Positions 2,453 through 6,250 of a stretch of DNA of 41,480 bases are shown one piece after another (within the stretch, counting starts at the first letter, position 1; every line of letters begins with the position of its first letter). Both the position numbers and the translations under genes were made by a program. This DNA comes from Candidatus Dojkabacteria bacterium. Lineage in GTDB: Bacteria > Patescibacteriota > Dojkabacteria > SC72. The notes beneath the pieces were generated by a model. That model ran no database searches. It saw nothing but the letters and a program-made list of their open reading frames with translations, and had not been told where the DNA came from. The DNA lies in contig JBAYNT010000001.1 in assembly GCA_041678645.1 (NCBI GenBank), positions 1 through 41,480 on the forward strand. The letters are read 5' to 3'.

Positions 2453-3751
2453 ATGGGAAACAATATAAATACACAACCAATGCCTGGCTTTATGGAACTC
2501 CTTCCTAACCAACAAATAGCATTTAATAAAATGCTGGATAAAATAAACGAAGTTTACAAACTATACGGCTTTAGACCAATAGAAACGCCCATACTAGAAA
2601 GAGCAGAAGTACTACTTACCAAAAGTGGTGGTGAAACAGAAAAACAGATATACCAATTTCAAAAGGGAGATAATAATATAGCCATGAGATTTGATCTTAC
2701 CGTACCACTAGCTAGATATGTAGCACAGTATCAAAACGACTTAGTATTCCCCTTTAAAATTGGGAACATCGGAAAGGTATATAGAGGAGAGAAACCTCAA
2801 GCAGGGAGATTTAGAGAATTCTATCAATGTGATGCGGATATAATAGGTAGAGATGAACTAGATATTTCTTTTGATGCAGAAATCATAAGTTTAATGTATA
2901 CAATACTTACAGGGCTTGGATTTGATAAATTTAAGATTAAAATCAACAATAGGAAGGTGATGAGTGGTTTCTTTCAATCATTAGATATGGACAGCCCAGC
3001 TGATATCTTAAGGATTCTAGACAAATTAGATAGGCTTAAGAGAGAAGATATTGTATTTGAATTAAAAGAGTTGAAGATTGATGATGAGAAGATTGACAAA
3101 ATATTTGAATTCATTGAGACTAAAGATGATATTATAGAAAAACTTAAAGAATTTGATATACAAAACGAAATATATTGGCAAGGGGTTGAAGAACTTGAGT
3201 ATGTAGATAATAGAGTTAAAGATCTATCTATAGATGAGGAGAACTATGAAATAGATCTTGGCCTATCAAGAGGGTTAGACTACTATACAGGTACTGTATA
3301 TGAAACCTTCCTTACAGACTATCCCGAATTCGGATCTATCTACTCAGGTGGGAGATATGATAATCTAAGCTCCTACTATACAGACAACAGATTCCCAGGA
3401 GTAGGGTGTAGTATCGGCCTTACAAGGCTCTTTGATTGTTTACTTAAAGAAAACCAAATAGATACCACCCAACAAACCTCTACCAATGTGTTGATAGTTG
3501 GAATGGAAGGATTTGATACTTACGCATTAGAGTTAGGGAACAGATTAAGAGGTTTTGGAATAAATACAGAGGTACTCTTTCAATTAAAGGGTAGTTTTAA
3601 GTATGCTGACAGATTAAACATCCCTTATGTTGTAGTAATAGGAGAAGATGAAATTGAAAGCAGTAAGTACACATTAAAAGAGATGGCTTCTGGAGAACAG
3701 GTAATGTTAGAGCAGGAGGAGTTAATTGCTAAATTAAGAGGAAATATTTAA
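2453..3751 (+). CDS. hisS: histidine--tRNA ligase (archaeal/eukaryote-like sequence type)
   Basis: 432 aa. Class II aaRS motifs are present: MRFDLTVPLARYV, GKVYRGEKPQAGRFREFYQCDADIIG, and GLSRGLDYYTGTVYE ... GGRYDNL. A C-terminal anticodon-binding domain is also present. Confidence 0.95.
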   Translation: MGNNINTQPMPGFMELLPNQQIAFNKMLDKINEVYKLYGFRPIETPILERAEVLLTKSGGETEKQIYQFQKGDNNIAMRFDLTVPLARYVAQYQNDLVFPFKIGNIGKVYRGEKPQAGRFREFYQCDADIIGRDELDISFDAEIISLMYTILTGLGFDKFKIKINNRKVMSGFFQSLDMDSPADILRILDKLDRLKREDIVFELKELKIDDEKIDKIFEFIETKDDIIEKLKEFDIQNEIYWQGVEELEYVDNRVKDLSIDEENYEIDLGLSRGLDYYTGTVYETFLTDYPEFGSIYSGGRYDNLSSYYTDNRFPGVGCSIGLTRLFDCLLKENQIDTTQQTSTNVLIVGMEGFDTYALELGNRLRGFGINTEVLFQLKGSFKYADRLNIPYVVVIGEDEIESSKYTLKEMASGEQVMLEQEELIAKLRGNI

Positions 3752-4483
3752 GATATCTCCTATTTGTTTAATTTCTATAATTTGAACTGACTCATCAAAT
3801 TTATAGTTTTTGGCTATACTTTTACTATACCTTTTTAAATAAACCGCATTTTTACAACCTACCTCAATAGGAGGTAGGATATCAGATCCGAAGTTGTCAC
3901 CAACAACCATCGCCTTTTCTGGCTTACTATCAACAAGCTCAAATGCTTTCAGCCAACTCCCACTATCCTTTTCTTCATCTATATCTGTAGCAAGATATGG
4001 TATATTGAATCCTGTCAATTTAGTTAAAAGATCTACCTTAAGTCTAGTCCATTCATCTTGAGCATGAGAGTGCAATCCAACTTTCTTACCTGCTTTAAGC
4101 AAGGCCTCTAAAATCCTCGGGGTATCATCAAATGGAGTAGGTGAGTGATGGTAAAAGTCTTTGAAAAACTCTACTACTAATACAGAAAGAGATGGACTAA
4201 TATCTTTTCCTAGGTACTCCTTTAAACCAAGAAGATATCTTTCAACTATCAGTGATGGCTTTTTACCACTCCTTTCATATTCCTTATATATTAAGCTATC
4301 AATATCTCTGGCTATTTCCTCAAAATTTCCTTCCGGATCTATATTTTGGGCAACTTCAACACCCAATTGAAAAGTTTTCTGCTTAAAGTACTCTCCCGTA
4401 GCAAAAAGTGTGTTATCAATATCAAATATCACTGTACCCACACCTCTACTATCAAGAAATTCAATTAATTTGTATTGCCGCAT
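3734..4483 (-). CDS. HAD-superfamily hydrolase
   Basis: 249 aa. It has the DxDxT nucleophile motif (VIFDIDNTLF) and motif IV (VVGDNFGSDI). Its 3' end overlaps the hisS 3' end by 18 nt in a convergent arrangement. Confidence 0.8.
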   Translation of the reverse strand: MRQYKLIEFLDSRGVGTVIFDIDNTLFATGEYFKQKTFQLGVEVAQNIDPEGNFEEIARDIDSLIYKEYERSGKKPSLIVERYLLGLKEYLGKDISPSLSVLVVEFFKDFYHHSPTPFDDTPRILEALLKAGKKVGLHSHAQDEWTRLKVDLLTKLTGFNIPYLATDIDEEKDSGSWLKAFELVDSKPEKAMVVGDNFGSDILPPIEVGCKNAVYLKRYSKSIAKNYKFDESVQIIEIKQIGDILNISS

Positions 4484-4540: not shown

Positions 4541-5254
4541 ATGAGTATGGAAGAAAACAAAAACATTGGGGAACAGGAAGTGCAAACTACACCAGAAGCT
4601 AGTAAGAAGAAAGAAAAAGGCTTTCTAACAGGGTGTTTAATATTCCTAGGTATTCTCCTTCTTCTGATTGCAATACTTGTAGGAGTAGGATATTGGGGTT
4701 ACAAGAAAGTTCAAAAAGGTATGGAGCAAACAGATTTAGGTATCACATATTCGGAGCAGGATTACTTAGATTTAATGCAAGATATAGGTCTTGATGCAGA
4801 TCCTAGTATGCTTTGTATAGATTGTCCAACACCTACATTCTCAGATCCTCGTGAGGTTTCTTTAACTGTCAGCGATAAACAGGCTTCAGCTGCTTTTGAA
4901 TATATTAACCAATCTCTTACATATGGTTCTGTTTCTGGTACCCAGATAGATGTCAGAGATAATCATGCAATACTTACAACTAATTTTACATTTCAAGGAA
5001 GGCAGTTCCCTATATATATGGTAGGAACAATTTCAAAGATTTCAGAGAATTCCATTGCTGGTAGCATTTCAGAGCTAAAAACAGGAACACTTACCATTCC
5101 AGAGAGTATTCGTAGTTTAGCAGAAAACGCATTACTGACTATTGCAAATGAGAAGTTAGCATCTGCTAAGGATAGTGTACGGATAGATAACTTAGTGTTA
5201 ACTGATAGCGGAGTTGTTTTTGATGGTTTACTGCCTACAAAAGCAGAGTTGTAA
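4541..5254 (+). CDS. membrane-anchored hypothetical protein
   Basis: 237 aa with a charged N-terminus, one transmembrane helix (FLTGCLIFLGILLLLIAILVGVGYWG) and an extracytoplasmic domain. No family was recognised. Confidence 0.6.
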   Translation: MSMEENKNIGEQEVQTTPEASKKKEKGFLTGCLIFLGILLLLIAILVGVGYWGYKKVQKGMEQTDLGITYSEQDYLDLMQDIGLDADPSMLCIDCPTPTFSDPREVSLTVSDKQASAAFEYINQSLTYGSVSGTQIDVRDNHAILTTNFTFQGRQFPIYMVGTISKISENSIAGSISELKTGTLTIPESIRSLAENALLTIANEKLASAKDSVRIDNLVLTDSGVVFDGLLPTKAEL

Positions 5255-5281
5255 GATAATTACTATAAGATACGAAAGGGC

Positions 5282-5310
5282 TTGCATTTAGTTCTAATTT
5301 TAGTTATATT
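5282..5310 (+). promoter_or_regulatory. sigma70-type promoter candidate driving the tandem ncRNA
   Basis: The -35 TTGCAT (5282-5287) and -10 TATATT (5305-5310) are separated by an exactly 17-nt spacer. No coding gene lies downstream on this strand. Confidence 0.5.
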
Positions 5311-5339
5311 TTAATCCTAGATCATTAAAAGTCTATGTC

Positions 5340-5634
5340 ATGCAAGATGTTGTTGGTTGATTTAACCATCCCTTTTCTCTTATTCTCTTCGGATTATAAG
5401 AGTTAATGTTCTGGTGTAACTCCAGCATCTTGCATTATGCAGAGTGTTGTTGGTTGATTTAACCATCCATTTATTCATATTCTCTTCGGATTATTTGAGT
5501 TTATGTTCCGGCGTAACTCCGGCTCTCTGCTTTATGCAGAGTGTTGTAGGTTGTTTCAAACCTTTCATCTTTTCTTCTTCTCTTCGGATTTGAAGATTTG
5601 ATGTTCCAGTGTAAGACTGGCACTCTGCTTTTTT
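5340..5634 (+). ncRNA. candidate structured ncRNA: three tandem ~95-nt cloverleaf-shaped modules ending in an intrinsic terminator
   Basis: The units are about 5340-5435, 5437-5532 and 5535-5628. Each has a closing stem P1 plus three hairpins, and all four helices keep pairing through different sequences in the three copies. An invariant TTCTCTTCGGATT cap contains C(UUCG)G. The P1 stem of unit 3 (GCAGAGTG/CACTCTGC) is followed by TTTTTT at 5629-5634. No conserved ORF runs across the units. Confidence 0.55.
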
Positions 5635-5652
5635 GTTATTTATTTCCATATT

Positions 5653-5684
5653 AAAAACAAAAACCGGGGCATACATACCCCGGC
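5653..5684 (-). terminator. intrinsic terminator of the RRM-protein gene
   Basis: On the minus strand the hairpin is CCGGGG-tatgtatg-CCCCGG followed by TTTTTGTTTTT, beginning about 25 nt after the stop codon. Confidence 0.75.
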
Positions 5685-5708
5685 TAAATTACAAAAATCA
5701 ATTGAATA

Positions 5709-5963
5709 CTAAAATTCTTTTGCTCTTGCTTCGTTTACTACTAAAGCTCTACCATTAATCTCGTAACCGTTAAGAGCCTCCAAAGCCTTATCGGCATCTG
5801 CATCCTCTGTATATGTAACAAAACCAAATCCTTTTGATCTTCCGCTCATCTTATCTTTAATGATGATGGCCTCTTCGACTGCACCGTGCTGACCAAAAAG
5901 GTCCTTTAGATCTTCTTCGGTAGTATTCCATTCAATATTACCTATAAATAGTTTTTTGGACAT
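5709..5963 (-). CDS. RRM (RNP-1/RNP-2) RNA-binding protein
   Basis: 84 aa. It carries RNP-2 LFIGNI and RNP-1 KGFGFVTY and has the typical single-RRM length. Confidence 0.9.
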   Translation of the reverse strand: MSKKLFIGNIEWNTTEEDLKDLFGQHGAVEEAIIIKDKMSGRSKGFGFVTYTEDADADKALEALNGYEINGRALVVNEARAKEF

Positions 5964-6250
5964 GAATAAAAAATATAAAAATTTAACAATCTAAACTATC
6001 TCTATCTACTTGGAGGTCTGAGAGATAATTCTCTAGCTAACTCACAATGAAAAGAAAAAGTTTATAGATTATAATATCCTTAATTCCCTAAAAAAGCAAA
6101 CCGTTGTTTTACTAATATCTCCTTTACTGATATAATCATGACTGTTCAAATTAGAGACTTGCGAATTACAGACCCCACAGAAATTTAATTCCCCGAATTC
6201 TACTTTGCATACCGATATTAATTCGGGTATTAAATTTTTTAAATATTTTA

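Follow-up and report, generated by a model that had tools for sequence, protein, structure and literature searches.

A conserved array of two to five four-way-junction modules defines an RNA family of narrow known range in Candidatus Dojkabacteria

Repetition of one binding module within a stable transcript is a hallmark of the protein-titrating RNAs CsrB, RsmZ and CrcZ, and the site recognized by CsrA/RsmE is A(N)GGA. The bacteria of the candidate phyla radiation (CPR) make up a large share of bacterial diversity; to our knowledge, almost no regulatory RNAs have been described in them. Among tandem RNA elements, the TIGR arrays of the TIGR-Tas systems occur in phages and parasitic (CPR) bacteria, their units being 36 nucleotides (nt) long with two alternating repeats of 8-12 nt, 9-nt variable spacers and an adjacent Nop-domain Tas gene (PMC12045711), and tandem riboswitch aptamers are also known (PMC9481103). 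The element described here is a tandem-unit RNA gene in a 41,480-nt stretch of Candidatus Dojkabacteria DNA (the window), in which the array lies within the intergenic space 5255-5708. It is very probably a stand-alone gene for a non-coding RNA of ~310 nt on the + strand, with two to five modules across the family, and is best described as a small RNA (sRNA) gene with its own promoter, embedded in the 3′ region of the gene for a protein of 237 amino acids (aa). No description of such an RNA was found in the literature on non-coding RNAs of Dojkabacteria and Patescibacteria or on tandem four-way-junction RNAs.

A preliminary description of this locus had proposed three tandem units, which was borne out by both the repeat search and the alignment. 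Tandem Repeats Finder reported a period-97 array at 5340-5614 (2.8 copies, 81% matches, score 341), and the three ~97-nt units aligned in MAFFT with a mean column identity of 88%. The units and their covariance-model scores are as follows.

5340..5435, + strand: unit 1, a short-type four-way-junction module (112-116 bits)
5437..5532, + strand: unit 2, short-type (104-111 bits); orthologue of unit 2 in the related locus L031, with which it is 94.8% identical and clusters together
5534..5630, + strand: unit 3, the terminal short-type module (100-106 bits), whose closing helix GCAGAGUG/CACUCUGC runs into a U tract

The third unit had first been placed at 5535-5628; the unit stood, and its bounds were corrected to 5534-5630. 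The 13-mer TTCTCTTCGGATT occurred exactly three times in the window, once in each unit, and no second copy of the element was found elsewhere in the 41 kb. Relative to shuffled sequences, the folding z-scores were -5.26, -2.3 and -4.69 for units 1, 2 and 3, respectively, and -6.95 for the whole 323-nt transcript.

Helices P1 to P4, as named in the preliminary description, were all present, together with a fifth helix, P3a, that it had not included. In unit 1, these elements occupy the following positions.

5340-5349 / 5426-5435, + strand: P1
5354-5358 / 5364-5368, + strand: P2
5371-5374 / 5405-5408, + strand: P3a
5377-5383 / 5396-5402, + strand: P3
5386-5393, + strand: apical UC(UUCG)GA
5411-5414 / 5422-5425, + strand: P4

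Covariation was measured by counting pairs, with 500 shuffles and slid structures as controls. For the four helices originally named, 92.9% of the cells in the three window units were paired, and both-sided change was seen in 8 of 28 pairs (three in P1, one in P2, two in P3 and two in P4). None of the 500 shuffles attained these values, and the slid controls gave 0-2 both-sided changes. The family-wide pair alignment, which was fitted to the covariance model, contained 28 distinct units from 8 loci. Here 88.8% of 893 pair cells were standard and 20 of 32 pairs, spread over every helix, had changed on both sides, although the units within and between arrays share descent and such counts therefore overstate the number of independent events. 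Again no shuffle out of 500 reached the observed values, and the slid controls yielded 2-7 such pairs. Compensatory change in every helix, as had been claimed, was thus found both in the window and across the family. When 13 short units were aligned by plain MAFFT, unguided by structure, and folded with RNAalifold, the same junction was obtained with 11 of 25 pairs compensatory. Since this alignment was not fitted to the model, it serves as an independent check of the structure. The structure is conserved by evolution.

Five helices were common to the 28 units. P1, the closing helix of 9-10 bp, kept its outer pairs G3-C, C4-G and A5-U, and its inner pairs varied freely. P2 (4-5 bp) had an invariant GGUU/AACC core and a loop of 5-6 nt, G(A/U)UU(U/A). 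The 4-bp P3a, CAU(C)/(G)AUG, lengthened the P3 arm across a U-rich internal loop, and P3 itself (6-7 bp) was followed by U·U internal loops and then by the invariant UC(UUCG)GA cap. P4 consisted of 4 bp closed by an invariant G-C pair, with a 7-nt loop, U-G-U-R-A-S-Y, and abutted the 3′ strand of P1 with zero linker nucleotides in all 28 units, as noted earlier for the window. The junction strands were also conserved (J1/2 UUGU, J2/3 UCC and J3/4 NU). Invariant or nearly so across the units were TCTTCGGA, the GGUU/AACC core of P2 and the P4 loop. Each unit carried one CGGA, predicted to be partly paired, and ended in GCAU or GCAC, with linkers of 1-4 nt between units. In the window, unit 3 lacked the two outer P3 pairs; the P3 helix of unit 2 was present as described, with a U·U mismatch that had gone unmentioned. 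The P3 cap reported as invariant is so within the window, but across the family this holds only for the core TCTTCGGA and not for the whole 13-mer. Covariation with a GNRA receptor was considered and rejected: unit 2 of L041 (GUAA) and unit 1 of L046 (GUGA) were otherwise identical, with no change in a partner.

About half of the units were long (126-129 nt), carrying a hairpin of 30-34 nt, P3b, between the 3′ strands of P3 and P3a. P3b folded in 15 of 15 long units; its stems differed in sequence (ACUACC/GGUGGU, ACUAUC/GAUGGU and GCUUCC/GGAGGU among them) and contained several G·U pairs. Within an array, long units were always 5′ and short units always 3′. The units clustered by their position in the array and not by species, terminal with terminal and first with first, which marks the modules as differentiated paralogues of long standing, duplicated or lost locally on occasion. 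Units are orthologous by position across species.

That the RNA lies on the + strand followed from three observations. G·U pairs numbered 32 against 16 A·C pairs, 14 of the latter at the doubtful outermost pair. Covariance-model scores were 16-30 bits on the reverse strand compared with 100-112 bits on the forward strand, and the UUCG and GUAA/GUGA loops read correctly on the + strand only.

The 237-aa protein served as the anchor for locating loci in related organisms, by means of one metagenome scan together with separate look-ups of its homologues. Those homologues that bore a source name were labelled as Candidatus Dojkabacteria (WS6), a lineage of the CPR. Two covariance models, R1 built from the three window units and R2 from ten units, were run on the collected loci. 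Homologous loci, which the preliminary description had suggested looking for in related genomes, were found at the same genomic position: the same element was directly downstream of the orthologous 237-aa gene in seven further Dojkabacteria lineages, with units scoring 50-112 bits (E-values of 1e-11 to 1e-28). Neighbouring proteins were as little as 57-58% identical to those of the window in L054 and L060. The number of units per locus was as follows.

Window: 3 units
L031: 2 units
L046 / L047: 3 units
L041: 4 units
L054: 4 units
L044 / L045: 5 units
L060: 5 units
L048: at least 2 units (contig end)
L049: partial first unit, the contig ending inside it; a variant of the window's own lineage with 77% neighbour-protein identity (P0002)

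The complete arrays therefore held 2, 3, 3, 4, 4, 5 and 5 copies. The contigs of L047, L048 and L049 ended inside the array or right after the first units; the repeat evidently breaks short-read assemblies, and copy numbers in draft genomes may be underestimated. The flanking proteins and an identical intergenic region were present on many metagenome contigs, including one of the NCBI assembly GCA_028681365.1. In one near-identical strain (L018, 3800-3895), a G-to-A change at position 7 of P1 in unit 1 (ATGCAAAATG) turned a G-C pair into A·C with the opposite P1 strand unchanged. Otherwise, more than 10 samples had the same intergenic region at 100% identity, strains with a 235-aa as opposed to a 237-aa upstream protein among them.

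The units are more strictly conserved than the flanking genes. Between the window and L031, nucleotide identity was 90-95% for the units, 76% for the upstream 237-aa gene and 87% for the downstream gene, which encodes an RRM protein; between the window and L054, the corresponding values were 81% for the terminal unit, 67% and 78%. In distant Dojkabacteria with a GlmS-234aa-M23-peptidase arrangement (among L032-L043, and L050, L052 and L059), no unit was found with filters off. A scan of species-representative genomes with the pattern TTCTCTTCGGATTN{9,11}ATGTTC gave 16 single matches, close to the chance expectation; these came from unrelated phyla, and none fitted the covariance model. This pattern was too specific to the window, because other species have TTTTCTTCGGATT or ATCTTCGGATT. 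With a looser family pattern, a scan of viral contigs gave four matches, none fitting the model. As far as seen, and with a genome-collection pattern that was window-specific, the family is confined to one Dojkabacteria subclade with eight species-level loci. It is a new RNA family of narrow known range.

Comparison of the leaders and of the sequences following the arrays pointed to the ends of the transcript. The relevant elements of the window are listed below; the promoter hexamers, their 17-nt spacing and the T6 tract were all at the positions first given for them.

5259..5269, + strand: invariant 11-mer ATTACTATAAG, 12 nt upstream of the -35 hexamer in the window
5282..5310, + strand: putative promoter, with -35 TTGCAT (5282-5287), a 17-nt spacer and -10 TATATT (5305-5310); predicted start near 5317
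5318..5335, + strand: 5′ leader hairpin P0, UAGAU-CAUUAAAA-GUCUA, with which the transcript is predicted to begin
5629..5634, + strand: U6 tract immediately following the last unit's P1; probable end of the transcript

In the leader alignment, TTGC(A/G)(T/A), exactly 17 variable nucleotides and TA(T/C)A(T/A)T were kept in 8 loci, and from this conservation 5282-5310 is probably a sigma-70-type promoter. The promoter had been called strong; its conservation across species supports the assignment, but the strength was overstated with respect to the Escherichia coli consensus, which is matched at 3 of 6 positions in the -35 and 5 of 6 in the -10 hexamer. A promoter scan based on that consensus omits the site because the -35 matches at only three positions. 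The P0 hairpin has five pairs, paired at 100% in 8 loci, with one A-U/U-A swap (4 loci against 4) and one U-A/U-G variation, and its loop CAUUAA was conserved across the leaders. Every complete array had a run of 6-8 T after its last unit, also at loci with unrelated sequence downstream, and internal unit boundaries never had more than 3 T. The proposal that the RNA has a promoter and an end of its own thus gained weight, the hexamers and the terminal U tract being kept while spacer and downstream sequence drift. The P1 helix of the last unit closes an 80-nt multibranch loop before the U tract, and in the structural model it may act as a terminator stem; the terminator scan called no canonical + strand terminator there.

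The ATTACTATAAG box was identical in 8 of 8 aligned leaders and also in L060, whereas the adjacent coding 3′ end and the spacer differed. In the window, L031, L041, L044, L046, L048, L049, L054 and L060, it followed closely on the stop codon of the gene for the 237-aa protein, at 11-13 nt upstream of the -35 across loci. In a regulon search, neither the box nor the promoter pattern was enriched in the window. Possibly, ATTACTATAAG is an activator or UP-type site, or else an element of the 3′ end of the upstream mRNA. In L044 (~3774-3790) and L046 (~3738-3754), the -35 is the right half of a 16-bp palindrome, TTGCAAATATTTGCA(T/A), which looks like an operator overlapping the promoter. Weaker forms of it were seen in L048, L054 and L060, and its left half is absent from the window.

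The genes flanking the array in the window, together with the terminator hairpin of the downstream one, are the following.

4541..5254, + strand: gene for the 237-aa membrane-anchored protein, without a Pfam match; the array is directly downstream of it in 8 of 8 species-level loci
5662..5685, - strand: canonical terminator hairpin of the RRM gene, with its U tract on the - strand, convergent to the RNA gene
5709..5963, - strand: gene for an 84-aa single-domain RRM_1 protein (Pfam RRM_1, E=4.3e-25), convergent with the RNA gene

Other neighbours were HisRS, HAD, DEAD-box and FtsX/ABC genes. The HisRS (2453-3751, +) and HAD-hydrolase (3734-4483, -) genes converge with an 18-bp overlap at 3734-3751, and the block HisRS-HAD-237aa-RNA-RRM was kept in every RNA-bearing lineage. 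The RRM gene adjoined the array in the window, L031, L041, L054 and L060 and was one gene away in L044; it was adjacent in 5 of the 6 loci in which the downstream side was seen. The downstream neighbour differed in L044 and L046.

The RRM gene has a 5′ leader of ~105 nt (window 5964-6075, -), with a promoter around 6076-6110 whose -35, TTGC(A/T)T, is the same as that of the RNA gene. The leader was nearly identical across species whose neighbouring proteins share only 57% identity. It holds an AGAGA-AUUA-UCUCU hairpin and an anti-Shine-Dalgarno-like ACCUCC, and no Shine-Dalgarno sequence was found before the AUG of the gene. RNAalifold gave its structure weak support, with two compensatory pairs, and it had no match in Rfam. 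The leader may be of an autoregulatory or cold-shock type. Pairing of the array with this 5′ untranslated region (UTR) was considered (UUGUAGGUU/GACCUCCAA, 8 of 9 positions) and set aside, being restricted to some units and with GGUU inside P2.

To place the RNA among known families, the window was searched with Rfam 15. At the gathering score, only the window's three tRNAs were returned and nothing in 5150-5750; at E<=10 over that region there was no meaningful match, including to tRNA, aptamer, Csr/Rsm and ribozyme models, which agrees with the initial assessment that no named RNA family was recognizable. ARAGORN called only the same three tRNAs and none in the array. The suggestion of a tRNA-like four-way junction therefore holds as topology but not as tRNA identity, which was ruled out by ARAGORN and the RF00005 covariance model, both blind to the units. 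Direct reading of the alignments showed no UUCRA T-loop, GG D-loop, 7-nt anticodon loop or 3′ discriminator with CCA in the units. The earlier statement that they lack a T-loop consensus was right as to UUCRA, but most units have a P4 loop, G[U-G-U-R-A-S-Y]C, in agreement with the generic U1...A5 T-loop pattern.

Several other identities were rejected. A Csr/Rsm RNA was discounted since no CsrB/CsrC/RsmX/Y/Z model matched and there is a single, partly paired CGGA per unit; with tblastn, CsrA, Hfq and ProQ were not found in the 41-kb window or in any collected locus. A riboswitch was rejected as the next gene is convergent and no aptamer class matched, and a TIGR array as the 97-129-nt units are conserved throughout and no Nop-domain gene was found within ~5 kb. 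Known self-cleaving ribozymes (hammerhead, twister, twister-sister, hairpin, hatchet, pistol and HDV-like) had no match at E<=10. Mimicry of the L11/GTPase region of 23S rRNA (GAUGUUGG...AGCCAUC and a GCGUAAUAGC loop) was dropped as a probable low-complexity coincidence: the rRNA domain is three-way, the P1 bases involved in the resemblance differ between units, and there was no local match to any rRNA model.

How the RNA might act is less certain than its structure. The reading placed first, albeit tentatively and by analogy, is that the intact RNA is a multivalent protein-binding platform, either decoy or scaffold. The RNA itself is very probably transcribed from the promoter at 5282-5310, opens with a small protective hairpin (5318-5335), runs through the three junction modules (5340-5630) and ends at the U tract after the last closing helix; since the 237-aa gene upstream has no terminator, its 3′ UTR can also include this sequence. 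In the platform reading, each module would form a rigid junction, and all would display three conserved surfaces: the J1/2-P2 segment UUGU-(A/U)GGUUG, rich in G and U; the apical UC(UUCG)GA, invariant and set between U·U mismatches; and the G[UGURA..]C loop of P4. A single transcript could then bind several copies of one RNA-binding protein, as CsrB and RsmZ do with CsrA. It is the repetition of the module, as in CsrB, RsmZ and CrcZ, that ranks an intact platform first, and the conserved 5′ hairpin, best explained by retention of the primary 5′ end, supports an intact RNA.

The sole candidate partner that can be named is the neighbouring 84-aa RRM-1 protein, suggested by its position. Bacteroides have neither Hfq nor CsrA, and in these bacteria single-domain RRM-1 proteins are proposed to serve as global chaperones and cold-shock proteins (10.1101/2021.04.27.441718; PMC13370968). 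One of them, Bacteroides RbpB, bound single-stranded GUAGGAUA in vitro (10.1101/2021.04.27.441718); this target resembles the UUGUAGGUUG of many units, a likeness that is a lead only.

Several points weigh against such a platform. The cUUCGg tetraloop is usually structural and not a protein site. The link to the RRM protein rests on gene order, in a clade in which gene order is conserved anyway, and in L044 the two are separated by another gene. The targets of RRM domains are single-stranded, and most of the conserved nucleotides here are predicted to be paired or in the junction. A multibranch P1 followed by U's is no canonical intrinsic terminator. Furthermore, position-conserved long and short modules fit a polycistronic precursor as well as a sponge, and the conserved outer P1 pairs (G-C, C-G and A-U) with their 1-4-nt linkers could be processing signals.

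The main rival is accordingly a polycistronic precursor that would be cut at the linkers by an RNase P/Z-like, RNase III-like or other endonuclease into cloverleaf RNAs of ~97 and ~127 nt acting singly, for example as tRNA-shaped mimics. This is a real possibility, though we hold it to be less probable than an intact platform. Each unit has its own closing helix, on which P4 stacks without a linker as in tRNA; besides the short linkers and the kept outer P1 pairs, whose inner neighbours are free, the differentiation of units by position resembles that of genes in a tRNA operon, and the P4 loop fits the generic T-loop pattern in most units. Such a precursor is nevertheless difficult to reconcile with units that neither ARAGORN nor the Rfam tRNA model recognizes and that have no CCA, UUCRA or 7-nt anticodon-type loop. 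Processing would also discard the conserved 5′ hairpin, and adjacent units often have near-identical P1 strands (as in units 2 and 3 of the window).

A related reading, which we consider rather unlikely, takes each module as a three-dimensional tRNA mimic by analogy. P1 and P4 would be coaxial, with the T-loop-like P4 loop docked on the P2 loop as an elbow, and the array, excised or within one transcript, would supply decoys for a machine that reads the tRNA elbow or acceptor; candidate targets are RNase P, a synthetase, and a ribosomal or elongation factor. The 2-5 tandem copies could equally well belong to a new class of aptamer or ribozyme.

As for aptamers, the modules might bind a small molecule or ion at the junction and act in trans, or on their own termination or read-through into RRM antisense. 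The conserved junction strands would suit this, as would a P2 stem that hardly covaries, a feature of aptamer cores, and the last P1 could double as the putative terminator stem. We nonetheless judge it improbable: there is no downstream open reading frame (ORF) on the same strand, no expression platform and no match among the known aptamer classes. Invariance is highest at the distal apex of P3, a long way from the junction, no known cooperative riboswitch reaches 2-5 copies, and the downstream neighbour differs in L044 and L046.

Equally doubtful is a cis-acting 3′ UTR of the 237-aa gene that would serve as stabilizer, exonuclease block or terminator. Wherever present, the array follows that gene immediately and in the same orientation, and relatives without the RNA have the 237-aa homologue in a different operon. 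In addition, the terminator scan found no + strand terminator between the gene and the array. A purely cis-acting element is, however, at odds with the fixed-spacing promoter hexamers and the 5′ hairpin conserved between the stop codon and unit 1, with an RNA kept more strictly than the gene that it would serve, and with a modular complexity and invariant loops far beyond the needs of a 3′ stabilizer.

Hairpin and twister-sister ribozymes are four-way junctions with conserved junction nucleotides, as are the present modules, and tandem unit-length repeats would suit self-processing. A new self-cleaving ribozyme or other catalytic RNA whose tandem copies cut themselves into units is still very unlikely, given that no ribozyme family matched, that the unit boundaries have no standout conserved nucleotides beyond the P1 pairs, and that the locus is chromosomal, single-copy and syntenic and neither mobile nor rolling-circle.

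Finally, the notion that the array is not an RNA at all but a DNA repeat (similar to miniature inverted-repeat transposable elements or repetitive extragenic palindromes, iterons or protein-binding palindromes) or a small protein gene on the - strand is scarcely credible and largely refuted, for although inverted repeats pair on both strands (- strand z-scores of -3 to -6) and public annotation has ORFs of 61, 118 and 143 aa covering the array, it conflicts with the G·U against A·C asymmetry and far weaker reverse-strand model scores, with the single syntenic locus, which together with that asymmetry rules out a dispersed repeat, with a promoter and U tract that are directional, and with frames that are inconsistent between copies and species. 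The array has no coding potential: stop-free stretches occur on both strands, and the short ORFs, described at the outset as not conserved between copies, read the same unit in different frames. Public ORF calls on the opposite strand over the array (5491-5676, -, 61 aa, in the window; 4883-5239, -, 118 aa, in L054; 1569-2000, -, 143 aa, in L060) had no Pfam match and no conserved frame, and are probably mis-annotations.

The locus thus provides a well-supported structured RNA family from CPR bacteria, with an unusual array of 2-5 differentiated four-way-junction modules kept by position, where public annotations label hypothetical ORFs on the wrong strand. Its reach is limited by a range that is narrow so far and by organisms that are uncultured. 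If the RNA is a binding platform, it would extend the sponge- or scaffold-type RNAs beyond the Csr/Crc systems for the first time and would offer a handle on the role of bacterial single-domain RRM proteins. If it is a tRNA mimic or a precursor, it would represent a new class of small stable RNAs, and as a mimic also a regulatory array in genome-reduced episymbionts with no described bacterial counterpart.

Among known systems, TIGR arrays share with the present one a tandem RNA array in a CPR-type genome and a single precursor ending at a terminator (putative here), but the units here are 97-129 nt long and lack variable spacers. STAXI and other orphan tandem-repeat motifs (PMC2864571; PMC5737381) are likewise repeats found by covariation, of narrow range and with function unassigned; the array differs from them in matching no Rfam model, although Rfam includes those motifs, and in a unit that is a four-way junction with UUCG-capped and GNRA/T-loop-like arms. 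Tandem riboswitch aptamers, such as those for glycine (PMC9481103), are also repeated self-folding multi-helix junction domains with conserved junction nucleotides. The array, in contrast, lies outside any 5′ UTR, with a U tract and then a convergent gene after it, and has up to five copies.

Like the RNA described here, whose promoter and terminator are putative, CsrB, RsmX/Y/Z and CrcZ are stand-alone sRNAs with their own promoter and terminator and with repeated modules of species-variable number, and the invariant CGGAU of each unit is close to the CsrA/RsmE site A(N)GGA. The modules of the array, however, are four-way junctions of ~97-129 nt and not simple GGA hairpins, their GGA is predicted to be half inside a stem, and they match no Csr/Rsm model in Rfam.

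A further architectural parallel is with tRNA and tRNA-like RNAs (RF00005; the tmRNA domain, YrlA and mascRNA). The array differs from these in a P1 of 9-10 bp and a J1/2 of 4 nt, in an ‘anticodon’ arm that forms a rod of ~17 layers with U·U internal loops and a UUCG cap, in having no UUCRA, GG D-loop or CCA, and in long units that branch inside the P3 arm and not at the variable-loop position. What they have in common is a four-way junction with three hairpin arms, a last arm that abuts the closing helix and would allow coaxial stacking of the acceptor/T type, a 7-nt P4 loop that is bounded by a G-C pair and in most units carries U first and A fifth, and, as in tRNA operons, a tandem arrangement with very short spacers.

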